Counted from the stretch's first letter, positions 1 through 13,485 are shown. The stretch: DNA of 13,485 nucleotides from a virus (IMGVR_UViG_2703718857_000001:1-13485), one strand, 5' to 3'. The notes: generated by a model from the letters alone, not told the origin. Made by a program: numbers and translations.

Positions 1-318
1 ATGAAAAAGATAGCTGCTATATCATTAATTAGTATTTTTATTATGTCTGGTTGTGCTGTGCATAATGATGAGACAAGTATCGGTAAATTTGGTCTTGCAT
101 ATAAAAGTAATATTCAGCGTAAACTCGATAACCAATACTACACCGAAGCCGAAGCTTCTTTAGCCAGGGGCAGAATATCTGGTGCAGAAAATATAGTAAA
201 AAATGATGCAGCCCATTTCTGTGTTACTCAGGGCAAAAAAATGCAGATAGTTGACCTGAAGACAGAAGGTGCAGGATTACATGGCGTCGCTCGTCTGACA
301 TTCAAATGTGGAGAGTGA
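1..318 (+). CDS. Small lipoprotein, probably host-encoded and flanking the prophage
   Basis: ORF begins at window position 1 with ATG. N-terminal hydrophobic signal peptide ending in a lipobox-like MSGC. Lies left of the candidate att core, so likely host DNA. Function unknown. Confidence 0.6.
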   Translation: MKKIAAISLISIFIMSGCAVHNDETSIGKFGLAYKSNIQRKLDNQYYTEAEASLARGRISGAENIVKNDAAHFCVTQGKKMQIVDLKTEGAGLHGVARLTFKCGE

Positions 319-380
319 GAATATTTTTTGGTAAGCGTCAAATATGCGCGTTCTGGCTGTGCGTAGCCGGAACCTGTGGG

Positions 381-413
381 AGCACGATGCCGATAAGTGA
401 AAGGCATCGTGCT
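381..413. repeat. Perfect 11-bp inverted repeat (AGCACGATGCC / GGCATCGTGCT) with 11-nt loop
   Basis: Read directly from sequence. About 60 nt downstream of the lipoprotein stop. No T-run follows, so it is not a classical intrinsic terminator. Followed by AAGGAGG and a 10-codon mini-ORF (433..465). Confidence 0.5.
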
Positions 414-476
414 ATGAAGGAGGATTCTATCGATGTGGTCAATGGAAGACGGTTACCAGAGATAGGGCTTATGCAT

Positions 477-503
477 AAAAAATAAGCCCGTGTAAGGGAG
501 ATT
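477..503. other. attL: Candidate prophage attL core (P2-type 27-bp att core)
   Basis: Sequence AAAAAATAAGCCCGTGTAAGGGAGATT matches my recollection of the P2 attP/attB core. It sits about 80 bp beyond the 3' end of int, as expected for P2-like phages. Identity is recalled, not searched. Confidence 0.6.
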
Positions 504-582
504 TAGGGTGTCACCAGTAGGGGCTTTCAACGGTACAATGCGGGTTTGAGCGGCATAAATTACCACTGAAAGCCCTTAAACG

Positions 583-1596
583 TTACTCTACTGTGGACAC
601 TGTGTGGACACTCTCGACCTCAGTACCACCTCTTAGCGGATTAAGAGAAATGGCGTCCTGAAGGTACTCTGGCGCAAAATGAGCGTAAACCATAGTTTGC
701 TCAATCCGCGTGTGACCTAGTATCCGTTGTAGCGTGATAATACTTCCTCCATTAATCATGAAATGAGTGGCAAAGCTGTGCCTTAGTGCATGTGTAGCTT
801 GCCCCATTGGCAAATCCGGTTTTATTGCTTTCATTGTACGTCTGAAGCGAGGGTAATCAGCATCAGGGAATAAAAAACCTCGTTTGTTATCCGCGATCAT
901 TTTGGCAACAGCCTCTGAGATCGGGACGGTGCGTGGTTTGTTTGTTTTCGTTTTAACAAACGTGACGCGGTTATGGATGATATTTTCTGCTTTCAAACGA
1001 GCTGCTTCTCCCCAACGTGCTCCAGTACTCAGGCAAAGAATCGCAATCTTTTTGTTGTCGCCGTCAAGAGCAGCAAGCAGTAAGGCAATTTCTTCCTGCG
1101 TGAGATAGCCTGTGTCTGGTTTTTCCTCCTTAAGCCTTTTTGTCCCTCTGATAGGGTGCTCACCAAAGAATAACTCCGCTTCAATCAGGGCTGTAAACAT
1201 GCCGCTAATACATGTTAAATCACGATTGATACTCGAAGGTTTAATACCCTGACTTCTTCGGGTGGCGCAGTACTGGCTGATAAGCGATTTCGTAATTTGA
1301 AATGCGCATGGGTCATTCGTTATTTTTGTGAAGATTTCAATTTTCCCAAGATTAGATTTCCCATGCTCTTCGTGTTTACCCTTTAAATCCCACCAGATCT
1401 GTGTCAGCTCCGACAGACGTCGCTTGTCTGTTGGTTTTGATAGCCATTCTTTATTGTGGTGGTTGTACAACGTGTATTTCTCGAAAGCGACAGCTTCGCT
1501 TTTCTTATCAAACTTCCTACGGATGCGTTTTCCATTACGTCCAGTAGGGCGGATGTCCACTTCATATCGACCATCATCGAGTTTTTTGATTGCCAT
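583..1596 (-). CDS. int: Tyrosine recombinase / phage integrase (P2 Int-like, 337 aa)
   Basis: 337-aa ORF. Tyrosine recombinase box II HxLRHSFATH and catalytic Tyr context MVYAHF. N-terminus MAIKKLDDGRYEVDIRP is P2-Int-like. RBS GGAGGG upstream of ATG on minus strand. Position at the prophage end next to the att core. Confidence 0.93.
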   Translation of the reverse strand: MAIKKLDDGRYEVDIRPTGRNGKRIRRKFDKKSEAVAFEKYTLYNHHNKEWLSKPTDKRRLSELTQIWWDLKGKHEEHGKSNLGKIEIFTKITNDPCAFQITKSLISQYCATRRSQGIKPSSINRDLTCISGMFTALIEAELFFGEHPIRGTKRLKEEKPDTGYLTQEEIALLLAALDGDNKKIAILCLSTGARWGEAARLKAENIIHNRVTFVKTKTNKPRTVPISEAVAKMIADNKRGFLFPDADYPRFRRTMKAIKPDLPMGQATHALRHSFATHFMINGGSIITLQRILGHTRIEQTMVYAHFAPEYLQDAISLNPLRGGTEVESVHTVSTVE

Positions 1597-1650
1597 CAGA
1601 AAACCCTCCGAGTGGTGTGTTTTTTTGCGACTACTAATCGCTTTTTTCGT

Positions 1651-1671
1651 GGTGGCTGAAATTTAGCCACC
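1651..1671. repeat. Perfect 7-bp inverted repeat GGTGGCT-N7-AGCCACC between C and int
   Basis: Read directly. Lies in the C-int intergenic region (1597..1711). No T-run follows on the minus strand, so it is not a terminator. Candidate protein-binding or RNA structure. Confidence 0.4.
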
Positions 1672-1711
1672 AATAGTAGGCACTTGTGATGAATATATTC
1701 ACGATGAATTG

Positions 1712-2011
1712 TTAACCAGTCTTTTGACCGGAGTGGGGCGACGTTGTTTCGTTTTGCCCAAAGTGTGCGAGAGCGGGCGCAATTTGCCCGGACTCAGGAG
1801 CGATCTGATTGGTCATGAACCATAAAGTGTATTTGGTGAATTGTGGGGTCTGCAGGATGTTCATCATGACATCTGTTGGAGGTGTTGAACGACCACTTTC
1901 ATAGTAACTCAGCGTGCCATACGGAACCCCTGTTAAATCAGCAAGTTGTTGTCTGCTCAAATACTCTGATTTTCGCATTAAGACTATCTTCTCGCTTATC
2001 GTGTTTGACAT
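1712..2011 (-). CDS. C: Immunity repressor (P2 C-like, 99 aa)
   Basis: 99-aa ORF directly upstream of int and co-oriented with it, divergent from cox. Size and position match P2 C. The sequence looks P2-C-like from memory. Confidence 0.85.
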   Translation of the reverse strand: MSNTISEKIVLMRKSEYLSRQQLADLTGVPYGTLSYYESGRSTPPTDVMMNILQTPQFTKYTLWFMTNQIAPESGQIAPALAHFGQNETTSPHSGQKTG

Positions 2012-2060
2012 GGTGTTTAGATCTCAATAGTATTTAGTTTAGATGTAGATTGTTTAGTGC
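2004..2060 (+). promoter_or_regulatory. Early promoter (Pe-like) with C-repressor operator direct repeats
   Basis: TTGACA at 2004..2009, 18-nt spacer, TAGTAT at 2028..2033, oriented toward cox. Exact 8-bp direct repeat GTTTAGAT at 2015..2022 and 2037..2044 (22 bp apart) flanks the -10. Additional GTAGAT / GTTTAGT copies follow. Confidence 0.55.
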
Positions 2061-2083
2061 TTGGATGTGGGCACTAAAAGGCA

Positions 2084-2089
2084 TTATAA
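2084..2089 (-). promoter_or_regulatory. Candidate -10 (TATAAT on minus strand) of a leftward repressor promoter (Pc-like), convergent with Pe
   Basis: Perfect TATAAT on the minus strand (complement of ATTATA at 2084..2089). The -35 is weak (TTGCGT-like, suboptimal spacing). Placement rests on the P2 face-to-face promoter arrangement. Confidence 0.35.
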
Positions 2090-2125
2090 GACATTAAACG
2101 CAATTCATGAGGGCTAGAGGACGAC

Positions 2126-2401
2126 ATGAGCAAGCAAGTAACACTCATGACTGATGCGATTCCTTATCAGGAGTTCGCAAAACTAATAGGAAAATCGACA
2201 GGAGCGGTTCGTCGGATGATCGATAAAGGAAAGCTGCCTGTAATTGATATGACCGATCCACAATCAGCTTCAGGTCGTGCAGGTGAATATTGGGTATACC
2301 TTCCGGCATGGAATAACGGACTAAAACTGGCTTATGAAAGCCGCCCTAAAGAGATTCGTGACGGCTGGTTGATGTGGTTAGGTCTCGGTGAACCACGTTA
2401 A
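2126..2401 (+). CDS. cox: Excisionase / early-promoter repressor (P2 Cox-like, 91 aa)
   Basis: 91-aa ORF, first gene of the rightward early operon, divergent from C. Size and position match P2 Cox. Confidence 0.85.
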   Translation: MSKQVTLMTDAIPYQEFAKLIGKSTGAVRRMIDKGKLPVIDMTDPQSASGRAGEYWVYLPAWNNGLKLAYESRPKEIRDGWLMWLGLGEPR

Positions 2402-2411
2402 GGAGAACCGT

Positions 2412-2582
2412 ATGAATGAGCCTCGTTGTATTGCTCAGTTACTGCGTAACGAAAGCCCCAGGGCGATTGACTTCACCATCACCCACGGTAAGGGGCGTAA
2501 GGGAATCATTATCCGCACCAAAAAACAGAGTCCGTTAAAAAAGGCTCTGACCTTTCTGAAAAGCCGGAGGGTATGGAAATGA
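2412..2582 (+). CDS. Small hypothetical early protein (P2 orf78-like)
   Basis: RBS AAGGAG at 2400..2405 followed by ATG at 2412. The longer ORF from 2388 overlaps the cox 3' end and lacks an RBS. Basic small protein. Its stop overlaps the start of B. Confidence 0.5.
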   Translation: MNEPRCIAQLLRNESPRAIDFTITHGKGRKGIIIRTKKQSPLKKALTFLKSRRVWK

Positions 2583-3079
2583 CAGTGATGACGCTCAATC
2601 TCGTTGAAAAACAGCCAGCAGCTATGCGCCGGATAATTGGCAAGCATCTTGCCGTCCCTCGCTGGCAGGATACATGTGATTATTATAATCAGATGATGGA
2701 GCGCGAACGGCTAACGGTTTGCTTTCATGCACAGTTAAAACAGCGTCACGCAACGATGCGTTTTGAAGAAATGAACGACGTCGAACGTGAACGGCTGGTT
2801 TGTGCAATTGATGAATTGCGTGGGGCATTCTCAAAACGCCGTCAGGTCGGTGCAAGTGAGTATGCATATATTAGTTTTTTAACAGTCAGCCAGCGACGTA
2901 CTTTATTTATGCACGCACGACTGACAGAAAAAGAATTCAACCAGCCGTACTGGCGAATTAATGAAGAATCATGTTACTGGCGTGATGCTTTATTCCGTGC
3001 ATTACGTGAATTATTCAGTCTGTTTGAGTATGCACCGACAATTCTGACGTCGGTAAAACCAGAGCAATATCTGCATTAA
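2579..3079 (+). CDS. B: Replication protein B (P2 gpB-like, helicase-loader-type function)
   Basis: 166-aa ORF if started at ATG 2579 (GGAGG at 2564..2568); 168 aa from 2573. Position between cox and A matches P2 B. Confidence 0.8.
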   Translation: MTVMTLNLVEKQPAAMRRIIGKHLAVPRWQDTCDYYNQMMERERLTVCFHAQLKQRHATMRFEEMNDVERERLVCAIDELRGAFSKRRQVGASEYAYISFLTVSQRRTLFMHARLTEKEFNQPYWRINEESCYWRDALFRALRELFSLFEYAPTILTSVKPEQYLH

Positions 3080-3142
3080 ATAATTAACCAGAGTTTTTAA
3101 CGCACTTAATCGTGCGGGGCTTCTTTTTGCCTGGAGAAAGTC

Positions 3143-3367
3143 ATGCATACAGTTTCTGAAAATCAGTGCGGTAAATACGCATTACTGCTGCAACAGGCCA
3201 GAACCGAAGCACAGGCCGACGCTGCGACGCGCTTTTCTTCTCATCTTGACGCCATGATTCGCCATATCACAAAGGCGGAGTTATCCCGCGTGGAGATAGT
3301 CGAGCTGCTCAGTCAGGAGTCGGAAAAATTTCACAATATCGGATTGTCTCGCGGGGAGGTGCTTTGA
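3143..3367 (+). CDS. Hypothetical early protein (P2 orf80-like)
   Basis: 74-aa ORF in early operon, start preceded by GGAGAAAG. Stop overlaps the next start (ATGA). Confidence 0.55.
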
Positions 3368-3669
3368 TGTCCTGTTCTCATTCAGTTGTATTACTGAATA
3401 ACGCCTTAAAAATCGCCGTTATGGAAAATGGTGATTTATCTCTTATTCAACTTTGTCTTGATAAAGAAAAACGCGACATAACTGAATCTGTTATCGCGAT
3501 TTATCAGAATGAATTAAACCTCCTGTCTGATGTGGTCAATTTACTTGTTAAACGCGCTGTATTCCACAAGCAAATTTCCTCCGTGGATGAACTGACAAAA
3601 TTAACGACAGAAATCGTCAGCTATTGCGCTGATGAATTTAAGAAACTGAACGACAAAAGGAACTGGTAA
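3364..3669 (+). CDS. Hypothetical early protein (P2 orf81-like)
   Basis: 101-aa ORF, translationally coupled on both sides. AT-richer codon usage than its neighbours. Confidence 0.55.
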
Positions 3670-3893
3670 TGCCGGACAACGTAGATTTCATTCAGGAACA
3701 ACAGGCTGAATTACTGGAGCGCCAGATTAACGCGGCAAGGGTAAAACATTGCGGTGTTTCTGCGCTGGTTTGCGAAGAGTGTGACGTGCCAATACCTGCT
3801 GCCCGTCGTGCGGCTTATCCGTCAGCCACGCGTTGTGTTTCCTGTCAGTCAGTCTTTGAAGCAAAAAACAAACATTACCGGAGAACGGCATGA
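3669..3893 (+). CDS. DksA/TraR-family C4 zinc-finger protein (P2 orf82-like)
   Basis: CxxC-x17-CxxC motif (CEEC...CVSC) typical of DksA/TraR zinc fingers. 74 aa. Coupled to flanking ORFs. Confidence 0.7.
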   Translation: MPDNVDFIQEQQAELLERQINAARVKHCGVSALVCEECDVPIPAARRAAYPSATRCVSCQSVFEAKNKHYRRTA

Positions 3894-4165
3894 GTATTCG
3901 TATTGAAATTGGCGAACGTTATGTCGTTACCAGTGACAGCTTTCAGTTTATTCTCCACGAGAAAAAGAGAGCGGAAAGCGGTAAAAACGCCGGTCAGGAA
4001 TGGCTGTCGGTGGTTGGTTATTACCCGAAATTAAGCCAGCTCGTTTCCGGCATGATGCATCACGATATTCTGACCGGAAGCGCAAAGTCTTTTGCTGATT
4101 TAAACGCGCAGGTTGAGCAACTCAGCAAGCGTTGTTCAGAGGCTTTTGGCTCATATGGCCGTTAA
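3890..4165 (+). CDS. Hypothetical early protein (P2 orf83-like)
   Basis: 91-aa ORF immediately upstream of A, overlapping the A start. Confidence 0.55.
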   Translation: MSIRIEIGERYVVTSDSFQFILHEKKRAESGKNAGQEWLSVVGYYPKLSQLVSGMMHHDILTGSAKSFADLNAQVEQLSKRCSEAFGSYGR

Positions 4166-6278
4166 AGCCTCCGGGCGTTTTGTCCCTCCATCAGCATTTG
4201 CCGCAGGCACCGGTAAGGCGTTTACCGGTGCTTATGCATGGAACGCGCCACGCGAGGCTGTCGGGCGCGAAAGACCCCTTACACGTGACGAGATGCGTCA
4301 GGTGCAAGGTGTTTTATCCACGATTAACCGCCTGCCTTACTTTTTGCGCTCGCTGTTTACTTCACGCTATGACTACATCCGGCGCAATAAAAGCCCGGTG
4401 CACGGGTTTTATTTCCTCACATCCACTTTTCAGCGTCGTTTATGGCCGCGCATTGAGCGCGTGAATCAGCGCCATGAAATGAACACCGACGCGTCGTTGC
4501 TGTTTCTGGCAGAGCGTGACCATTATGCGCGTCTGCCGGGGATGAATGACAAGGAACTGAAAAAGTTTGCCGCCCGTATCTCATCGCAGCTTTTCATGAT
4601 GTATGAGGAACTCTGCGATGCATGGGTTGATGCACATGGCGAGAAAGAATCGCTGTTTACGGATGAGGCTCAGGCGCATCTGTATGGTCATGTTGCTGGC
4701 GCTGCACGAGCTTTCAATATTTCCCCTCTCTACTGGAAAAAATACCGTAAAGGACAGATGACCACGAGGCAGGCATATTCTGCCATTGCCCGTCTGTTTA
4801 ACGATGAGTGGTGGACTCATCAGCTTAAAGGTCAGCGTATGCGCTGGCATGAGGCGTTACTGATTGCTGTCGGGGAGGTGAATAAAGACCGTTCTCCTTA
4901 TGCCAGTAAACATGCCATTCGTGATGTGCGTGCGCGCCGCCAGGCAAATCTGGAATTTCTTAAATCGTGTGACCTTGAAAACAGGGAAACCGGCGAGCGC
5001 ATCGACCTTATCAGTAAGGTGATGGGAAGTATTTCTAATCCTGAAATTCGCCGGATGGAGCTGATGAACACCATTGCCGGTATTGAGCGTTACGCCGCCG
5101 CAGAGGGTGATGTGGGGATGTTTATCACGCTGACCGCGCCGTCAAAGTATCACCCGACACGTCAGGTCGGAAAAGGCGAAAGTAAAACCGTCCAGCTAAA
5201 TCACGGCTGGAACGATGAGGCATTTAATCCAAAGGATGCGCAGCGTTATCTCTGCCGCATCTGGAGCCTGATGCGCACGGCATTCAAGGATAATGATTTA
5301 CAGGTCTACGGTTTGCGTGTCGTCGAGCCACACCACGACGGAACGCCGCACTGGCATATGATGCTTTTTTGTAATCCACGTCAGCGTAACCAGATTATCG
5401 AAACCATGCGTCGCTACGCGCTCAAAGAGGATGGCGACGAAAGAGGAGCCGAGCGAAACCGTTTTCAGGCGAAACACCTTAACCGGGGCGGTGCTGCGGG
5501 GTATATCGCGAAATACATTTCAAAAAATATCGACGGCTATGCACTGGATGGTCAGCTCGATAACGATACCGGCAGACCTCTGAAAGATACTGCCGCGGCT
5601 GTTACTGCATGGGCGTCAACGTGGCGCATCCCGCAATTTAAAACGGTTGGTCTGCCGACAATGGGGGCTTACCGTGAACTACGCAAATTGCCTCGCGGCG
5701 TCAGCATTGCTGATGAGTTTGACGAACGCGTCGAGGCTGCACGCGCTGCCGCAGACAGTGGCGATTTTGCGTTGTATATCAGTGCGCAGGGTGGGGCAAA
5801 TGTTCCGCGCGATTGCCAGACTGTCAGAGTCGCCCGTAGCCCGTCGGATGAAGTTAACGAGTACGAGGAAGAAGTCGAGAGAGTGGTCGGCATTTACGCG
5901 CCGCATCTCGGCGCGCGTCATATTCATATCACCAGAACGACGGACTGGCGCATTGTTCCGAAAGTTCCGGTCGTGGAGCCTTTAACTTTAAAAAGCGGCA
6001 TCGCCGCGCCTCGGAGTCCTGTCAATAACTGTGGAAAGCTCACCGGTGGTGATACTTCGTTACCGGCTCCCACACCTTCTGAGCACGCCGCAGCAGTGCT
6101 TAATCTGGTAGATGACGGTGTTATCGAATGGAATGACCCGGAGGTCTTGAAAGTGCTTAATCTGGCATTGAAAATAGAAGCATCACGTAAATGTACAAAC
6201 AAAGGAGACACACGAGCAGGCATAGTTGGCGAGTCAACCGCGATTTTCAATGTACAGGATGCTGATAATCAACAATGA
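4155..6278 (+). CDS. A: Rolling-circle replication initiator / endonuclease (P2 gpA-like, HUH superfamily)
   Basis: Start likely ATG 4155 (MAVKASGRF...); the track ORF from 4113 begins at a TTG inside orf83. HUH-like motif PHWHMML and twin-tyrosine motif GYIAKYISK, typical of phiX174-A/P2-A type Rep proteins. 707 aa. Confidence 0.9.
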   Translation: MAVKASGRFVPPSAFAAGTGKAFTGAYAWNAPREAVGRERPLTRDEMRQVQGVLSTINRLPYFLRSLFTSRYDYIRRNKSPVHGFYFLTSTFQRRLWPRIERVNQRHEMNTDASLLFLAERDHYARLPGMNDKELKKFAARISSQLFMMYEELCDAWVDAHGEKESLFTDEAQAHLYGHVAGAARAFNISPLYWKKYRKGQMTTRQAYSAIARLFNDEWWTHQLKGQRMRWHEALLIAVGEVNKDRSPYASKHAIRDVRARRQANLEFLKSCDLENRETGERIDLISKVMGSISNPEIRRMELMNTIAGIERYAAAEGDVGMFITLTAPSKYHPTRQVGKGESKTVQLNHGWNDEAFNPKDAQRYLCRIWSLMRTAFKDNDLQVYGLRVVEPHHDGTPHWHMMLFCNPRQRNQIIETMRRYALKEDGDERGAERNRFQAKHLNRGGAAGYIAKYISKNIDGYALDGQLDNDTGRPLKDTAAAVTAWASTWRIPQFKTVGLPTMGAYRELRKLPRGVSIADEFDERVEAARAAADSGDFALYISAQGGANVPRDCQTVRVARSPSDEVNEYEEEVERVVGIYAPHLGARHIHITRTTDWRIVPKVPVVEPLTLKSGIAAPRSPVNNCGKLTGGDTSLPAPTPSEHAAAVLNLVDDGVIEWNDPEVLKVLNLALKIEASRKCTNKGDTRAGIVGESTAIFNVQDADNQQ

Positions 6279-6399
6279 TAGCTATTGTGACTATGCTAAC
6301 CATATGAATCTATTGTGTGATTATGAGTAATGACTTTTTCTAATATTTGATTTTTAATGTAGTAACTTAGCTAATTTTAAAATTTGTAAAAGGATGTTT

Positions 6400-7647
6400 A
6401 TGTCGATTTATCAAGGTGGTAACAAGTTAAATGAGGATGATTTTCGTTCTCACGTTTATTCCTTGTGTCAATTAGATAATGTTGGCGTTCTGTTAGGTGC
6501 TGGTGCTTCTGTCGGTTGTGGTGGGAAAACGATGAAAGATGTATGGAAATCGTTTAAGCAAAACTACCCTGAGCTTTTGGGAGCACTTATTGATAAATAT
6601 CTTCTGGTTTCGCAAATTGATTCTGATAACAATTTGGTCAATGTTGAACTTTTGATAGATGAAGCAACTAAATTTCTTTCTGTAGCTAAAACTAGACGAT
6701 GTGAAGATGAAGAGGAGGAATTCAGGAAGATATTAAGTTCATTATATAAAGAGGTTACGAAGGCTGCATTATTAACAGGAGAACAGTTTAGAGAGAAAAA
6801 TCAGGGTAAAAAAGATGCGTTTAAATATCACAAAGAGTTAATTTCAAAATTAATTTCAAATAGACAGCCCGGTCAGTCGGCTCCGGCAATTTTTACAACA
6901 AATTATGATTTGGCCTTAGAGTGGGCTGCAGAAGATTTAGGAATACAGTTGTTTAATGGTTTTTCTGGGCTACATACACGGCAGTTTTATCCCCAGAATT
7001 TTGATTTGGCTTTCAGAAATGTAAATGCGAAGGGCGAAGCAAGATTCGGACATTATCATGCGTATCTCTATAAATTACATGGCTCACTTACGTGGTATCA
7101 AAATGATAGCTTGACTGTTAACGAAGTTAGTGCATCTCAAGCATATGATGAATATATTAATGACATAATCAATAAAGATGACTTTTATCGCGGTCAACAT
7201 TTGATTTATCCAGGGGCGAATAAATATAGCCATACAATCGGCTTCGTTTATGGAGAGATGTTTAGACGTTTTGGGGAGTTTATTTCGAAGCCTCAAACAG
7301 CGTTGTTCATAAATGGGTTTGGTTTCGGTGATTATCATATAAATAGAATAATATTAGGCGCGTTACTGAATCCATCTTTCCATGTTGTTATATATTATCC
7401 TGAATTGAAAGAAGCAATTACCAAAGTAAGTAAGGGTGGCGGTTCGGAAGCTGAGAAAGCTATTGTTACTTTAAAAAATATGGCTTTCAATCAAGTAACT
7501 GTAGTTGGGGGAGGAAGCAAGGCATATTTTAATAGTTTCGTAGAACATCTACCATACCCTGTGCTCTTTCCACGAGATAATATTGTTGATGAGTTGGTTG
7601 AAGCAATTGCTAATCTTTCTAAAGGAGAAGGTAATGTCCCTTTTTAA
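6400..7647 (+). CDS. SIR2-like (sirtuin-fold) protein, predicted NAD+-consuming effector of a SIR2-HerA-type defense pair
   Basis: Motifs seen: GAGAS (about 6496), TTNYD (about 6894), KLHGS with candidate catalytic His (about 7074), GFGFGD (about 7320). No CxxC zinc module, as in defense-type SIR2 domains. Start 6400 preferred over 6394 on RBS spacing (AAAGGA at 6388..6393). Low GC. Confidence 0.85.
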   Translation: MSIYQGGNKLNEDDFRSHVYSLCQLDNVGVLLGAGASVGCGGKTMKDVWKSFKQNYPELLGALIDKYLLVSQIDSDNNLVNVELLIDEATKFLSVAKTRRCEDEEEEFRKILSSLYKEVTKAALLTGEQFREKNQGKKDAFKYHKELISKLISNRQPGQSAPAIFTTNYDLALEWAAEDLGIQLFNGFSGLHTRQFYPQNFDLAFRNVNAKGEARFGHYHAYLYKLHGSLTWYQNDSLTVNEVSASQAYDEYINDIINKDDFYRGQHLIYPGANKYSHTIGFVYGEMFRRFGEFISKPQTALFINGFGFGDYHINRIILGALLNPSFHVVIYYPELKEAITKVSKGGGSEAEKAIVTLKNMAFNQVTVVGGGSKAYFNSFVEHLPYPVLFPRDNIVDELVEAIANLSKGEGNVPF

Positions 7648-9466
7648 ACTTACTGAAATCTCGGCTATTGGATACGTTGTAGGATTAGAAGGGGAAAGAA
7701 TTAGGATAAACCTGCATGAGGGGTTGCAAGGCAGATTAGCATCGCATAGAAAGGGGGTGAGCTCAGTAACGCAACCAGGAGATCTTATTGGGTTCGATGC
7801 AGGTAATATATTAGTTGTCGCAAGAGTGACAGATATGGCATTTGTTGAAGCGGATAAAGCGCATAAGGCAAATGTAGGCACATCTGATTTAGCTGATATA
7901 CCTCTAAGACAAATTATCGCCTATGCAATTGGCTTTGTGAAAAGGGAGTTAAATGGTTATGTTTTTATATCAGAAGATTGGCGCTTACCTGCATTGGGTT
8001 CTTCTGCTGTTCCTTTGACTTCAGATTTTTTGAACATCATTTATAGTATTGATAAAGAAGAACTCCCAAAAGCGGTTGAATTAGGTGTGGATTCTCGAAC
8101 TAAAACCGTTAAGATATTTGCAAGTGTTGATAAATTATTGTCGCGACACTTAGCCGTTCTTGGTAGTACAGGATATGGTAAATCAAATTTCAATGCTTTG
8201 TTAACGAGGAAGGTTTCTGAAAAATACCCTAACTCAAGAATAGTTATTTTTGACATAAATGGTGAATACGCGCAAGCTTTTACAGGTATTCCAAATGTAA
8301 AGCACACTATTCTAGGGGAATCCCCAAATGTTGATAGTTTGGAAAAAAAGCAGCAAAAGGGTGAGCTATATAGTGAAGAGTATTATTGTTATAAAAAGAT
8401 ACCATATCAGGCATTAGGTTTTGCTGGGTTAATTAAATTATTAAGACCAAGTGATAAAACACAATTGCCCGCATTAAGAAATGCATTAAGTGCAATTAAT
8501 CGGACTCATTTTAAAAGCCGTAATATTTACTTGGAAAAAGATGATGGTGAAACTTTTCTTTTGTATGATGATTGTCGTGACACAAATCAAAGTAAATTGG
8601 CTGAGTGGTTGGATTTATTAAGGCGTAGACGTCTTAAAAGAACGAATGTATGGCCACCGTTTAAAAGTTTAGCGACTTTGGTTGCTGAATTTGGATGTGT
8701 AGCTGCTGACCGTTCTAATGGAAGTAAACGTGACGCGTTTGGTTTTAGTAACGTGTTGCCATTGGTAAAAATCATACAACAACTTGCAGAGGATATAAGA
8801 TTTAAATCTATTGTTAATTTAAATGGAGGGGGTGAGCTAGCAGATGGTGGAACGCATTGGGATAAAGCTATGAGTGATGAAGTTGATTACTTCTTTGGTA
8901 AGGAAAAAGGACAAGAAAATGATTGGAATGTTCATATAGTTAATATGAAAAATTTGGCACAAGATCATGCTCCAATGTTACTTAGTGCATTGTTGGAGAT
9001 GTTTGCTGAGATACTATTTAGACGTGGGCAGGAACGTTCGTATCCTACGGTACTTTTGTTGGAAGAAGCGCATCATTACCTGCGTGACCCTTATGCTGAA
9101 ATTGACTCACAGATTAAAGCATATGAACGACTTGCTAAAGAAGGTAGGAAATTCAAATGCTCTTTAATTGTCAGTACTCAGCGACCCTCAGAGCTTTCTC
9201 CTACTGTTTTGGCAATGTGTTCAAACTGGTTTTCGTTACGTTTGACTAATGAAAGAGATTTACAGGCTCTCAGATATGCAATGGAAAGCGGTAATGAACA
9301 AATCTTAAAACAAATATCAGGTTTACCAAGAGGTGATGCTGTTGCATTTGGTTCTGCATTTAATTTGCCTGTAAGAATTTCAATTAATCAAGCAAGGCCA
9401 GGGCCAAAATCTTCAGATGCTGTTTTTTCTGAAGAATGGGCTAATTGTACAGAATTACGTTGTTAA
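7634..9466 (+). CDS. HerA/FtsK-like P-loop ATPase (DUF87-type), partner of the SIR2-like protein
   Basis: Walker A GSTGYGKS (about 8162..8185). Walker B hhhhEEAH as VLLLEEAHH (about 9058..9084). STQRPSEL sensor-like motif. Start ATG 7634 has strong RBS AAGGAG at 7622..7627 and overlaps the SIR2 stop (7645..7647). 610 aa. Low GC. Confidence 0.85.
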   Translation: MSLFKLTEISAIGYVVGLEGERIRINLHEGLQGRLASHRKGVSSVTQPGDLIGFDAGNILVVARVTDMAFVEADKAHKANVGTSDLADIPLRQIIAYAIGFVKRELNGYVFISEDWRLPALGSSAVPLTSDFLNIIYSIDKEELPKAVELGVDSRTKTVKIFASVDKLLSRHLAVLGSTGYGKSNFNALLTRKVSEKYPNSRIVIFDINGEYAQAFTGIPNVKHTILGESPNVDSLEKKQQKGELYSEEYYCYKKIPYQALGFAGLIKLLRPSDKTQLPALRNALSAINRTHFKSRNIYLEKDDGETFLLYDDCRDTNQSKLAEWLDLLRRRRLKRTNVWPPFKSLATLVAEFGCVAADRSNGSKRDAFGFSNVLPLVKIIQQLAEDIRFKSIVNLNGGGELADGGTHWDKAMSDEVDYFFGKEKGQENDWNVHIVNMKNLAQDHAPMLLSALLEMFAEILFRRGQERSYPTVLLLEEAHHYLRDPYAEIDSQIKAYERLAKEGRKFKCSLIVSTQRPSELSPTVLAMCSNWFSLRLTNERDLQALRYAMESGNEQILKQISGLPRGDAVAFGSAFNLPVRISINQARPGPKSSDAVFSEEWANCTELRC

Positions 9467-9623
9467 TTACCTGATGTACATGGCTAGTGCAAGTTGGTAG
9501 CGCATGTCTATATGCATTTATTTGCATGTGTTTTATTGAGTGAGCGCACAAGCTTGATGACCCGACAGGTATGTATTTAGACTGAATTTACACCTGCATT
9601 AAAACCGCCCCACGAAGCGGGCG

Positions 9624-9642
9624 GGCGAGGCGGGGAAAGCAC
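9624..9642. other. cos: cos cohesive-end sequence (P2-type 19-nt)
   Basis: GGCGAGGCGGGGAAAGCAC matches my recollection of the P2 cohesive end. It lies in the expected position between the cargo slot and Q, within a GC-rich region with short direct repeats (GCGGTGGTG at 9652 and 9748). Confidence 0.65.
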
Positions 9643-9784
9643 TGCGCGCTGGCGGTGGTGCTGATTTTATTTTTTCAGCGTCTGAGCGCGTCGTGGCGGC
9701 GTTTAGATTTTGCGCCGGGGCGTTGCTGTGTCTGCGGGCTGTTTTGTGCGGTGGTGAGCGTGTGAGGGCGTGATGACTGGGTGT

Positions 9785-9806
9785 AAAAAAGCCGCCCGCA
9801 GGCGGC
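9785..9806 (-). terminator. Rho-independent terminator downstream of Q (minus strand)
   Basis: On the minus strand: GCCGCC-TGCG-GGCGGC hairpin followed by TTTTTT, immediately 3' of the Q stop (9812..9814). Confidence 0.7.
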
Positions 9807-9811
9807 GATGT

Positions 9812-10846
9812 TCAGCCGTTGTCAGTGTCCAGTGAGTAGTTTTTAAAGCGGATGACCTCCTGACCGAGCCAGCCGTTTATCTCGCGGATCCTGTCCTGTA
9901 ACGGGATAAGCTCATTGCGGACAAAGACCTTTGCCACTTTCTCAATATCACCCAGCGACCCGACGTTCTCCGGCTTGCCGCCCATCAACTGAAAGGGGAT
10001 GCGGTGCGCGTCCAGCAGGTCAGCGGCGCTGGCTTTTTTGATATTAAAAAAATCGTCCTTCGTTGCCACTTCACTGAGCGGGATAATTTTAATGCCGTCG
10101 GCTTTTCCCTGCGGGGCATAGAGAAACAGATTTTTAAAGTTGTTGCGGCCTTTCGACTTGACCATGTTTTCGCGAAGCATTTCGATATCGTTGCGATCCT
10201 GCACGGCATCGGTAACGTACATGATGTATCCGGCATGAGCGCCATTTTCGTAATACTTGCGGCGGAACAGCGTGGCCGACTCATTCAGCCAGGCAGAGTT
10301 AAGGGCGCTGAGATATTCCGGCAGGCCGTACAGCTCCTGATTAATATCCGGCTCCAGCAGGTGAAACACGGAGCCGGGCGCGAAAGGTGTCGGCTCATGG
10401 AAGGACGGCACCCACCAGTAAACATCCTCTTCCACGCCACGGCGGGTATATTTTGCCGGTGAGGTTTCCAGTCTGATGACCTTACCGGTGGTGCTGTAAC
10501 GCTTTTCCAGAAACGCATTACCGAACACCAGAAAATCCAGCACAAAGCGGCTGAAATCCTGCTGGGAAAGCCACGGATGCGGAATAAACGTTGAAGCCAG
10601 AATATTGCGTTTAACGTAAATCGGCGAGCTGTGATGCACGGCAGCACGCAGGCTTTTTGCCAGACCGGTAAAGCTGACCGGCGGCTCATACCATCTGCCG
10701 TTACTGATGCATTCGACGTAATCCAGAATGTCACGGCGGTCGAGCACCGGCACCGGCTCACCAAAGGTGAATGCCTCCATTTTCGGGGCGCTGGCAGTCA
10801 TTTTTTTTGCCGCAGGTTGCGGTGTTTTCCCTTTTTTCTTGCTCAT
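9812..10846 (-). CDS. Q: Portal protein (P2 gpQ-like, 344 aa)
   Basis: 344-aa ORF adjacent to cos, co-oriented with and coupled to P (ATGA overlap at 10844..10848). Size and position match P2 Q. Confidence 0.9.
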   Translation of the reverse strand: MSKKKGKTPQPAAKKMTASAPKMEAFTFGEPVPVLDRRDILDYVECISNGRWYEPPVSFTGLAKSLRAAVHHSSPIYVKRNILASTFIPHPWLSQQDFSRFVLDFLVFGNAFLEKRYSTTGKVIRLETSPAKYTRRGVEEDVYWWVPSFHEPTPFAPGSVFHLLEPDINQELYGLPEYLSALNSAWLNESATLFRRKYYENGAHAGYIMYVTDAVQDRNDIEMLRENMVKSKGRNNFKNLFLYAPQGKADGIKIIPLSEVATKDDFFNIKKASAADLLDAHRIPFQLMGGKPENVGSLGDIEKVAKVFVRNELIPLQDRIREINGWLGQEVIRFKNYSLDTDNG

Positions 10847-12303
10847 CAGTAAAACTCCAGAATGGTGGATGTCAGCGGGGTGCTGATACCGGCGGTGAGT
10901 GGCTCATTTAACAGGGCGTGCATGGTCGCCCAGGCGAGGTCGGCGTGGCTGGCTTCCTCGCTGCGGCTGGCCTCATAGGTGGCGCTGCGTCCGCTGCTGG
11001 TCATGGTCTTGCGGATAGCCATAAACGAGCTGGTGATGTCGGTGGCGCTGACGTCATATTCCAGACAGCCACGACGGATAACGTCTTTTGCCTTGAGCAC
11101 CATTGCGGTTTTCATTTCCGGTGTGTAGCGGATATCGCGCGCGGCGGGATAGAACGAGCGCACGAGCTGGAACACGCCGACACCGAGGCCGGTGGCATCA
11201 ATACCGATGTATTCGACGTTGTATTTTTCGGTGAGTTTGCGGATGGATTCAGCCTGGGTGGCAAAGTCCATGCCTTTCCACTGGTGACGCTCAAGTATTC
11301 TGAATTTGCCACCGGCCACCACCGGCGGTGCCAGCACCACGCATCCGGCGCTGTCGCCACGGTGTGACGGGTCGTAACCAATCCATACCGGGCGGGAGCC
11401 GAACGGATTGGCGGCAAACGGTGCATAGTCTTCCCATTCTTCCAGCGTGTCGACCATGCAGCGTTGCAGCTCCTCGAACGGGAACACCGATGCCTTGTCG
11501 TCAACAAATTCACACATGAACAGGTTTTTAAAATCGTCGGCGCTGTTTTCGCGTTTGAGCTGCTCAATGTCGAACAGCGTGCAGCCGCCTTTCAGGGCGT
11601 CCTCAATGGTGACAATCTGCCGCCACTGGCCGTCCGCACAGAGAAGCCCACCGGCAAGGGCGTTATGACTGACGTCGATTTCCACACGTTCGGCGGCGCT
11701 GGCGCGTCCCCGGTTAAACAGTTCACCCGACCAGAACGGGTAGGCGTCGTGCGCCAGCGTGGACGGGGTGGAGAAATAGGTCGAGCGCAGGTGGCTCTGT
11801 GAGGCCATACCGGATGCCACCTTACGCAGTACCTGAAAATTCGGGATCCAGAAAATCTCATCGACGTACAGGTCGCCGTTATGGCTCTGTGCGGTGTTGG
11901 AGTTGGTGCCGAGAAAAATCAGTTTTGCGCCGTTATTACCCAGGACAATCGGGTCACCGGTCAGGTCAACGTCAACCAGCCGGGCAAAGGCGATGATGTA
12001 TTCGCGGAACACATACGCCTGCGTTTTACTGGCCGACAGAAAAATCTGGTTATGACCGGTTTTCAGGGCGCGCAGCAGCGCCTCGCGGGAAAAATAAAAC
12101 GTCGCGCCAATCTGGCGGGATTTCAGGATATCGCGGATGCGGTGCTCAAGCCCGGCGCGATAAATGCCACGCTTTACCTTTACCCTGGCCCCGAAAGCGA
12201 ACCCATTCGCGCTGCCGCCGTGAAAAAACTGGAAGCGTATATCACGGCACAGCACCGGCTGGGGCGCGACATCCGACTGTCTGCCATTTATGCCGCTTTG
12301 CAT
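10846..12303 (-). CDS. P: Terminase large (ATPase) subunit, P2 gpP-like; probably 5'-truncated, with the first ~45 codons of this ORF not genuine P sequence
   Basis: Terminase-type deviant Walker A-like motif KSRQIGAT (compare T4 gp17 SRQLGKT, lambda gpA KSARVGYS). 485-aa ORF versus ~590 aa recalled for P2 P. Its 5' end (about 12160..12303) is antisense to a protein-like plus-strand reading frame. Confidence 0.75.
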   Translation of the reverse strand: MQSGINGRQSDVAPQPVLCRDIRFQFFHGGSANGFAFGARVKVKRGIYRAGLEHRIRDILKSRQIGATFYFSREALLRALKTGHNQIFLSASKTQAYVFREYIIAFARLVDVDLTGDPIVLGNNGAKLIFLGTNSNTAQSHNGDLYVDEIFWIPNFQVLRKVASGMASQSHLRSTYFSTPSTLAHDAYPFWSGELFNRGRASAAERVEIDVSHNALAGGLLCADGQWRQIVTIEDALKGGCTLFDIEQLKRENSADDFKNLFMCEFVDDKASVFPFEELQRCMVDTLEEWEDYAPFAANPFGSRPVWIGYDPSHRGDSAGCVVLAPPVVAGGKFRILERHQWKGMDFATQAESIRKLTEKYNVEYIGIDATGLGVGVFQLVRSFYPAARDIRYTPEMKTAMVLKAKDVIRRGCLEYDVSATDITSSFMAIRKTMTSSGRSATYEASRSEEASHADLAWATMHALLNEPLTAGISTPLTSTILEFY

Positions 12304-12357
12304 GTGGAAGGCGTGCAGCGTGTCGAACTGGCTGCACCGCTGGCCGCTCTTATGTAG
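12181..12357 (+). pseudogene. 3' fragment of a phage structural gene (baseplate J-like C-terminus suspected), lacking its 5' part
   Basis: Protein-like frame ...YPGPESEPIRAAAVKKLEAYITAQHRLGRDIRLSAIYAALHVEGVQRVELAAPLAALM*. It has no own start or RBS, and upstream in frame it runs into the antisense of P. Family assignment from memory only. Confidence 0.4.
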
Positions 12358-12359
12358 AC

Positions 12360-12503
12360 CAGAGTAAAAACGAATATCACATCAGCCTGACGGGCGGTAC
12401 TGCGCCGGGGACACAACTTGATCGCCAGTTACAGGATGCGCTCGAAAAATACGAGCGGGATAAACGTGCGCGTGCCCGTGCCAGCATGATGCATGACGGT
12501 TAA
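12360..12503 (+). pseudogene. 3' fragment of the gene upstream of U (tape-measure T C-terminus suspected), in a different frame from the preceding fragment
   Basis: Protein-like frame QSKNEYHISLTGGTAPGTQLDRQLQDALEKYERDKRARARASMMHDG*, ending 15 nt before the U start with AAGGAGG in between. Upstream in this frame is not protein-like. Confidence 0.35.
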
Positions 12504-12517
12504 GGAGGTGACGAAAA

Positions 12518-12997
12518 ATGATGCTCGCGTTAGGTATGTTTGTTTTTATGCGCCAGACGCTGCCACACCAGACCATGCAGCGTGAATCAGATTATCGCTG
12601 GCCGTCAAATTCCCGTATCGGTAAACGGGATGCCTACCAGTTTCTCGGTGTGGGTGAGGAAAACATCACGCTTGCCGGTGTGCTTTATCCCGAACTGACC
12701 GGCGGCAAGCTGACGATGGCCACGCTCAGGCTGATGGCAGAGGAAGGCCGGGCGTGGCCGTTGCTGGATGGCACCGGCATGATTTACGGCATGTATGTCA
12801 TCAGCAGGGTGAGTGAAACAGGGAGTATTTTCTTTGCAGACGGCACACCCCGGAAAATTGATTTTACGCTGTCGCTCACCCGCGTTGATGAATCACTGGC
12901 CGCGCTTTATGGCGATATCGGTAAACAGGCGGAATCGCTCATCGGTAAGGCTGGCAGTATGGCGACTAAATTCACGGATATGACGGGGGCGGGATAA
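12518..12997 (+). CDS. U: Tail protein U (P2 gpU-like, 159 aa)
   Basis: 159-aa ORF with strong RBS AAGGAGG. Stop overlaps the start of the next gene (TAATG). Position upstream of D matches the P2 tail operon. Confidence 0.85.
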   Translation: MMLALGMFVFMRQTLPHQTMQRESDYRWPSNSRIGKRDAYQFLGVGEENITLAGVLYPELTGGKLTMATLRLMAEEGRAWPLLDGTGMIYGMYVISRVSETGSIFFADGTPRKIDFTLSLTRVDESLAALYGDIGKQAESLIGKAGSMATKFTDMTGAG

Positions 12998-13485
12998 TGC
13001 TGGATGCACTGACATTTGATGCAGGCAGTACGCTGACGCCGGATTACATGCTGATGCTCGACAGCAGGGATATTACCGGCAATATCAGCGACCGTCTGAT
13101 GAGCATGACCCTGACGGATAACCGGGGCTTTGAGGCTGACCAGCTTGATATTGAACTGAACGATGCCGACGGGCAGGTCGGGCTGCCGGTTCGTGGCGCT
13201 GTCCTGACGGTGTATATCGGCTGGAAAGGTTTTGCCCTGGTATGCAAAGGGAAATTTACCGTTGATGAGGTTGAACACCGGGGCGCACCGGATGTGGTCA
13301 CCATCCGCGCCCGGAGTGCAGATTTTCGCGGGACGCTCAATTCCCGCCGTGAAGGCTCCTGGCATGACACCACGCTCGGTGCGATTGTTGAGGCGATAGC
13401 CTCCCGTAACAGGCTGGAAGCCAGTGTCGCTCCGTCACTGGCCGGAATTAAAATCCCGCACATCGACCAGTCGCAGGAGTCTGAT
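12997..13485 (+). CDS. D: Tail protein D (P2 gpD-like), 5' portion only; continues beyond window end
   Basis: Open frame from ATG 12997 to the window edge (163 codons, no stop). N-terminus MLDALTFDAGSTL... is P2-D-like from memory. Follows U as in P2. Confidence 0.85.
   Translation, partial: MLDALTFDAGSTLTPDYMLMLDSRDITGNISDRLMSMTLTDNRGFEADQLDIELNDADGQVGLPVRGAVLTVYIGWKGFALVCKGKFTVDEVEHRGAPDVVTIRARSADFRGTLNSRREGSWHDTTLGAIVEAIASRNRLEASVAPSLAGIKIPHIDQSQESD

Follow-up and report, generated by a model that had tools for sequence, protein, structure and literature searches.

The analysed stretch of 13,485 nucleotides (IMGVR_UViG_2703718857_000001:1-13485; hereafter, the window) very probably carries a genuine deletion scar in a P2-like prophage, in which two junctions of short homology mark the loss of about 19 kb of the late region. 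By its sequence, the window covers the left-hand 13 kb of a P2-like (Peduovirus) prophage at the yegR/trhP(yegQ) attachment site of Escherichia coli. An earlier note on this DNA had proposed a deletion scar at which a truncated terminase gene abuts tail and baseplate fragments. Our analysis upheld the scar but resolved it into two junctions, not one, each with microhomology (Table 1).

Table 1. Features of the window and their counterparts in P2 (positions counted from the first nucleotide of the window)
Feature	Position	Strand	Description
yegR, E. coli chromosome	1-475		flank of the prophage
att core, 28 bp	476-503		aligns to P2 attP core from 24355
attP core, int, C, cox, B, orf80-83, A	476-6150		P2 24355-30029 (BLAST)
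SIR2 protein	6394-7647		PADLOC PDLC02186, E 4e-190, profile 2-408/412
HerA-type ATPase	about 7634-9466		PADLOC PDLC02185, E 2e-277, profile 2-582/585
cos cohesive-end sequence, GGCGAGGCGGGGAAAGCAC	9624-9642	+	retained; window 9624 = P2 position 1
cos, Q, 3' 1317 nt of P	9624-12162		P2 1-2537 (BLAST)
Q, portal protein, 344 aa	9812-10846	-	intact; Pfam Phage_portal
P', 3' 1317 nt of the large terminase gene	10846-12162	-	gpP residues 153-590
Junction 1, P/J	12159-12162		4-bp microhomology GATA; P2 2534-2537 (P), P2 11939-11942 (J)
J', internal piece of baseplate gene J, 188 bp	12159-12346	+	gpJ residues 217-278; P2 11939-12126 (BLAST, E 1e-83, DNA level)
Non-native 47-codon extension of the P' frame	12163-12303	-	open to ATG 12303; antisense to the J fragment
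T 3' end, U, D 5' part	12334-13485		P2 22127-23279 (BLAST)
Junction 2, J/T	12340-12346		perfect 7-bp microhomology CTGGCCG; imperfect 13/14 from 12334
T', 3' end of the tape-measure gene	12347-12503	+	gpT residues 762-815 and stop; out of frame with J'
U, tail protein, 159 aa	12518-12997	+	intact; Pfam Phage_P2_GpU 1-120/120
D, 5' part, first 163 codons	12997-13485	+	colinear with P2 22791-23279; runs off the window

The window was compared by BLAST with the reference phage P2 (NC_001895) and with an intact relative in E. coli EC01 (NZ_CM169500.1). Four segments of the window matched, all colinear and all in the same orientation, with 95.7-97.9% identity to P2, and Pfam matches to Phage_portal, Terminase_6N/6C and Phage_P2_GpU likewise support membership in the P2-like phages (Peduovirus). 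The element is in its integrated form, as the att core adjoins int at the known chromosomal attachment site and the flank is yegR. This core is identical to the attR copy of EC01 (L005 34437-34464), the right end of the intact sister prophage; the window's own attR lies outside the window. The EC01 prophage, which sits at the same chromosomal site and carries SIR2-HerA as well, is 99.2% identical over window positions 1-12162; between about 1500 and 9500 the two hardly differ (3 mismatches in about 8 kb). At the cos end, window 9595-9642 aligns to P2 33546-33593, and cosL is annotated in P2.

The terminase gene is truncated, as had been claimed. P' is identical to residues 153-590 of P2 gpP at 438 of 438 positions, and residues 1-152 are missing, including the Terminase_5/HTH domain (12-69 in full-length gpP); the match to P2 ends at 12162. 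The ATPase and nuclease domains are both complete in P' (Terminase_6N 2-215/215 and Terminase_6C 1-154/155). The minus-strand open reading frame (ORF) that contains P' continues to 12303 (10846-12303, 485 aa), and before residue 48 it has no homology to gpP. These additional 47 codons are probably not a real N-terminus. ATG 12303 has no Shine-Dalgarno-like sequence upstream, an exact look-up of the 485-aa ORF gave no match, and a set of 5.8 billion protein clusters held no P'/antisense-J fusion protein. Searching that set with the fusion N-terminus returned separate matches only, namely ordinary P fragments and one short match to the first 62% of the query, a match that we read as an antisense-J ORF; none spans the junction. 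A plus-strand ORF at 11881-12357 (158 aa) was also considered as a gene and rejected; it has no Pfam match and consists of antisense P running into the J fragment.

On the other side of the terminase, the switch from minus-strand to plus-strand coding had been placed at about 12150-12185, and junction 1 was found within that interval. The plus-strand, protein-like fragment that follows comes from J, with 95.7% nucleotide identity to P2 and 98.4% to the J gene of EC01 (blastn). Its protein is identical to gpJ up to residue 278 (62/65 across the full alignment), and its frame closes at a TAG (12355-12357) ten bases past junction 2, out of frame with T. Both ends of J are deleted, and J' is without the last 24 codons of the gene. 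The second short fragment runs from junction 2 to the native T stop codon (12501-12503) and matches the C-terminus of P2 gpT at 54 of 54 residues. These comparisons with gpJ, gpT and gpP exclude a full-length P and an intact gene at 12181-12503. The earlier note had further listed U and D as intact. For U this is borne out by a full-length Phage_P2_GpU match, and the gene keeps its native ribosome-binding site AGGAGG (12503-12508); D could be checked over its first 163 codons only, with 98.2-98.4% identity to EC01 and P2. Q and U have open frames, as has D as far as the window shows it.

Parent genes were identified for all fragments at 95-100% protein identity, and the T-U region of the window is 99.8% identical at the nucleotide level to E. 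coli Combat13F7. The exact Q protein is recorded in 4229 blocks of the public collection, with full-length P adjoining Q in 9 of 10 places among the matches listed; for the exact U protein, recorded in 396 blocks, full-length T adjoins U throughout the matches listed. Apart from one unrelated remnant, these look-ups returned common alleles within intact prophages.

The junctions, which are known from one assembled sequence, were mapped by a base-level three-way comparison of the window, P2 and EC01. The alignment against P2 and the search for the fragments' parents that the earlier note had suggested were thereby carried out, and they gave the two junctions of Table 1 and the genes J and T. 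Junction 1 joins minus-strand P at codon 153 to plus-strand J at codon 217. With a slash marking the breakpoint, the parents read ...GGCGCGATA/CCAG in P and ...CCAGATA/AACGCC in J, and the window reads ...GGCGCGATAAATGCC. At junction 2, J codon 278 meets T codon 762. The window was aligned here with J and three T alleles, one of which has 99.8% identity to its T-U segment; the parents are TGCACCGCTGGCCG/ACAT in J and GGCACCGGCTGGCCG/CTCTT in T, and the window has TGCACCGCTGGCCGCTCTT. Relative to P2, the window lacks P2 2538-11938 at junction 1 (9,401 bp, and also 9,401 bp in EC01 coordinates) and about P2 12127-22140 at junction 2 (about 10.0 kb; 9,563 bp in EC01 coordinates). Of this whole region the window keeps just two pieces, from J (188 bp) and from T (about 160 bp), and the architecture of the window is that of P2 minus two intervals.

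One copy of the repeat is kept at each junction and inserted DNA is absent, which is the pattern of a microhomology deletion. Classical studies of deletions in E. coli established that a single retained copy of a short repeat, with neither a mobile element nor long homology, marks deletion by slipped strands or a template switch, independent of RecA. No filler DNA, insertion sequence (IS), terminal inverted repeat or target duplication was found at either junction, nor any long direct or inverted repeats, and P, J and T sequence together account for all of 12100-12520, which speaks against deletion by an IS or transposon. Two RecA-independent illegitimate recombination junctions, P/J across GATA and J/T across CTGGCCG, would account for the removal of about 19 kb; judged by the scar, they most likely arose when replication slipped, or switched template, between short direct repeats. 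Taken alone, the four-base microhomology at junction 1 is weak evidence. It is scarcely credible that a mobile element, or homologous recombination between two co-resident P2-like prophages, made the rearrangement. Many E. coli do hold more than one P2-like prophage (the T region occurs in up to 3 places per genome), and IS damage is known from the prophage remnant in APEC O1, but both junctions are free of mobile-element traces, the parents share just 4 and 7 bp against the tens to hundreds used in RecA-dependent exchange, and the P/J and J/T gene pairs are non-homologous.

Secondary structure may have helped at the T end. In all native T alleles the sequence CAGCCGGT-N6-ACCGGCTG lies directly before GCCG and forms a perfect 8-bp stem, and the 3' end of this hairpin coincides with the crossover at junction 2 (DNA folding -10.5 kcal/mol, z -2.3 to -3.1). 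DNA folding at the other three breakpoints found no structure. An M/T junction in another prophage remnant, that of strain EC2001, falls in the same CTGGCCG heptamer, and the EC2001 T fragment is 4.3% diverged from that of the window. Among 1,571 records, 3 had a truncated best match within a 401-bp interval around the T breakpoint, which gives no population-wide hotspot signal. With only two cases, and these 3 of 1,571 truncated records, the evidence for a hairpin-assisted breakpoint in T is no more than suggestive.

Both junctions are missing from 5,426 complete E. coli genomes (megablast of 11800-12800; top query coverage 48%), and the exact junction-1 and junction-2 patterns are absent from GTDB species representatives, JGI metagenomes and IMG/VR. 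This absence from every other public sequence searched would fit an assembly artefact, that is, a mis-join or a collapsed or chimeric contig from a genome whose real prophage is intact. We consider this highly improbable, because the shared 4 bp and 7 bp (13/14) are far below an assembler's k-mer or overlap length and the junctions contain no repeat, because two mis-joins 188 bp apart that both keep order and orientation would be odd, and because comparable real deletions exist at the same locus in finished genomes.

A genuine scar could also have arisen in a single complex event, in which a polymerase switched template twice, copied 188 bp of J and skipped 19 kb in one step, by fork stalling with template switching or by microhomology-mediated break-induced replication. 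Both junctions have microhomology and the short kept segment is colinear, as this route would have it. An island of 188 bp between two independent deletions of about 10 kb each would be about 1-2% likely (a rough estimate assuming uniform endpoints), and no intermediate with just one junction was found among the 5,426 genomes or in the other collections searched. The tiny island and the missing intermediates lean slightly towards the single event; the latter carry little weight, since the entire scar is confined to a single strain. Against it, successive deletions are the route usually assumed for prophage decay, the EC2001 remnant was remodelled in several steps, and no sequence feature tells a one-step from a two-step origin. 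We regard the single event as possible but hold it tentatively.

On the sequences compared, the scar is private to its source strain and evolutionarily recent. In P', 18-27 codons differ synonymously and none nonsynonymously from four of five relatives; for the fifth, EC2001, the counts are 25 and 1. The five changes in P' that are private to the window are all at third codon positions, and all differences of J' and T' from P2 are synonymous. Since the differences are almost exclusively synonymous, these genes were under purifying selection until very recently.

The deleted particle and lysis genes are O, N, M, L, X, Y, K, lysA, lysB, lysC, R, S, V, W, I, H, G, FI, FII and E/E'; by the P2 annotation, the 5' end of P, orf30, fun(Z), both ends of J and 761 codons of T are lost besides. 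No genes for scaffold, major capsid, small terminase, head completion, lysis, baseplate, fibre, sheath, tube or tape measure remain in functional form. The claim that capsid, lysis and most tail genes are missing thus holds by comparison with P2 and EC01, with the qualification that one head gene, the portal gene Q, is retained. With particle and lysis genes absent and P, J and T truncated, the element is by gene content a defective (cryptic) prophage. Its gene content implies that it could not package DNA, the small terminase and capsid genes being gone, and that it could neither assemble the heads and tails of particles nor lyse the cell.

According to the P2 annotation, all four late promoters (pP, pO, pV and pF) lie inside the deleted intervals. 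The start of P and its late promoter had been predicted to lie in the missing DNA, and both do: P2 2538-11938 holds the P start, the transcription start of the P operon (P2 3016) and the activator-binding site that pP and pO have in common (P2 3057-3087). U and D are also without a native promoter, because all four late promoters are lost. A consensus scan for promoters and terminators across 9400-13485 gave a single promoter-like site, located in U, where shuffled sequence would lead one to expect more; no such site was near the junctions or able to drive P', J', T' or U. With all four of these Ogr-dependent promoters lost, the leftover genes Q, P', U and D have no promoter and are probably silent. 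In an annotation they should be entered, together with J' and T', as remains of a crippled prophage and not scored as functional phage.

The lysogeny and replication modules (int, C, cox, B, A and ori) are intact, and so are cos and the SIR2-HerA cassette. The cassette lies in a non-P2 stretch (6150-9590) of the gpA-gpQ interval and consists of two adjacent proteins with full-length model matches (6394-9466; Pfam SIR2_2 and DUF87/HerA), for which a defence role is predicted. This interval is a described defence hotspot in P2-like phages, and P2 itself carries old and tin there (Rousset et al. 2022, PMC9122126). For annotation, the cassette next to the scar is still a bona fide defence locus.

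This combination raises the alternative of a selected domestication, in which lethal and costly late genes were shed to leave a satellite-like island of about 14 kb that can excise and replicate, bears cos and could be packaged by a helper. Early genes, cos and defence genes are all intact, 1500-9500 is near-identical to the intact sister, the lost set includes precisely the lysis genes and all late promoters, and the cargo sits in the defence hotspot. Still, we judge this origin quite unlikely. The scar is found in one strain and shows no sign of spread or long maintenance, the kept pieces of Q, P', J', T', U and D have no evident purpose, and satellite-specific functions (capsid-size redirection, helper derepression, an own primase) are absent. 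A genome of 14 kb would also fall far short of the approximately 33 kb that P2 heads package. A combined reading, in which a structure-driven hotspot in T (the hairpin, and the same heptamer in EC2001) yields a product of about 14 kb (int, cox, C, B, A, ori, SIR2-HerA and cos) that persists as an excisable, helper-packageable defence island, is very unlikely; if true, it would describe a route from P2 helpers to satellite-like elements.

Compared with known systems, the window resembles P4-like satellites and the P2-P4 hotspots (PMC9122126) in its cos-proximal defence cargo between gpA and gpQ and in having cos without the capacity, by its gene content, to build particles itself. It differs in being a truncated helper phage without genes of the sid, psu, delta, epsilon or alpha type; all of its ORFs are P2 genes or SIR2-HerA cargo, and its junctions indicate accidental loss and not a dedicated architecture. 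Intact prophages of the P2/EC01 type have the gene order and orientation of the window at 96-100% nucleotide identity, a figure that covers att/int, C, cox, B, A, cos, Q, the 3' part of P, U and D.

Deletions between short direct repeats, including palindrome-assisted ones, were reportedly described in E. coli lacI by Albertini and colleagues in 1982 and by Glickman and Ripley in 1984. Like these, the window junctions keep one repeat of 4-7 bp without filler, and one endpoint is at the base of a hairpin; unlike in those cases, the two deletions (9.4 and about 10 kb) take out far more DNA, and the mechanism is read from the scar.

Other close counterparts are independent remnants with different junctions at the yegR/trhP site in EC2001, O18 and APEC O1. 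The EC2001 remnant combines a deletion with an inversion and keeps pieces of N and M, indicating multi-step remodelling. In O18 and APEC O1, O is joined to J, with a CGCC microhomology at the O18 junction, and APEC O1 has ISEc12 in the tail-fibre region. As in the window, the late region of these remnants was deleted internally, both prophage ends were kept and the junctions have short microhomology, whereas each remnant has its own junctions and none has those of the window. A further remnant, in GCA_052260675.1, lies elsewhere in the genome than yegR/trhP and joins P' to FI' with a 7-bp overlap. Since independent remnants occur in other strains, such deletions recur naturally. At yegR/trhP, where numerous strains have P2-derived remnants in differing states, E. 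coli K-12 has what we take to be a remnant reduced to part of D, ogrK and attR, which is far more reduced than that of the window. Reviews on the decay of 'grounded' prophages give the same pattern (PMC6379469). The scar is a new, strain-private case of the known erosion of P2-like prophages by internal deletion and does not differ from it in kind. It provides a base-resolved example of P2-type decay, in which late promoters, lysis genes and structural genes are lost and the ends and cargo are spared, and it adds one more data point for repeated, independent erosion at the yegR/trhP site, in keeping with current understanding.

The deletion in the window created two long chimeric ORFs, one on each strand across the P-J junction, and neither showed any family support. 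Gene callers could nevertheless list both as proteins.

Coordinates of features in the window and in related P2-like prophages (L005, intact E. coli EC01 prophage; L002, L004 and L010, defective remnants)
Feature	Location	Strand	Remark
158-aa ORF	window 11881-12357	+	antisense P reading into the J fragment
47-codon leader	window 12163-12303	-	antisense J, on truncated P
T breakpoint	window 12334-12346; L005 32198-32223; L002 15637-15638		CTGGCCG heptamer
Replication gene A	window 4155-6278		P2 gpA match up to about residue 662-675 only
SIR2 (417 aa) and HerA-type ATPase (~610 aa)	window 6394-9466		anti-phage system, intact
Scrambled remnant	L002 13000-18000		E. coli EC2001 (NZ_CP133811.1), same site as window prophage
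Tandem units, about 5 of ~38 bp each	L004 18891-19062		E. coli APEC O1 (NC_008563.1), between truncated O and truncated J
P-FI junction	L010 5765-5771		GCA_052260675.1, another independent P2 remnant; 7-bp overlap

The same CTGGCCG heptamer contained the breakpoint in the tape-measure gene T in both the window and the independent EC2001 remnant. A perfect 8-bp hairpin, conserved among T alleles, has this heptamer at its 3′ base, and on these two cases the site may represent a structure-assisted deletion endpoint. The EC2001 remnant consists of truncated P, an inverted T 3′ end, an inverted N-M piece, and truncated U followed by D and ogr, a layout explained by an M-T deletion first and a subsequent inversion with loss at both ends. 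A cox-A fusion was also present in this remnant, and its cargo differs from that of the window in carrying a different SIR2 family protein.

When window positions 1-12162 were compared with the EC01 prophage, divergence was mosaic along the length, with 3 mismatches across approximately 1500-9500 and 1.5-4% divergence in int (500-1500) and Q-P (9500-12000). Because of this mosaic pattern, and because the segment from truncated T to U was closest to a prophage of a different strain, Combat13F7 (99.8%), sequence comparison indicates that P2-like prophages recombine with one another.

The SIR2-HerA cassette sits between A and cos, the old/tin hotspot of P2; it was 99.9-100% identical to that of EC01, and approximately 19 complete E. 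coli genomes carry it as well. Beyond gpA residue 662-675 or so, the C-terminus of the window A protein differs from that of P2 and is shorter (707 vs 761 aa), and the hotspot boundary seems to fall inside the 3′ end of A. This A allele was also found in the otherwise intact EC01 prophage and in that of strain O18, where PGAP labels it a pseudogene without the C-terminus.

The GCA_052260675.1 remnant occupies another place in the chromosome, close to cpxA, and has its own cargo, including a DNA methylase. In it, the final 236 nt of P run straight into the 3′ portion of the sheath gene FI. Each tandem unit of APEC O1 matched a 27-bp stretch at the 3′ end of FI (EC01 28845-28871). The O18 remnant shares an identical J breakpoint with APEC O1 but joins O directly to J, without the tandem repeats.
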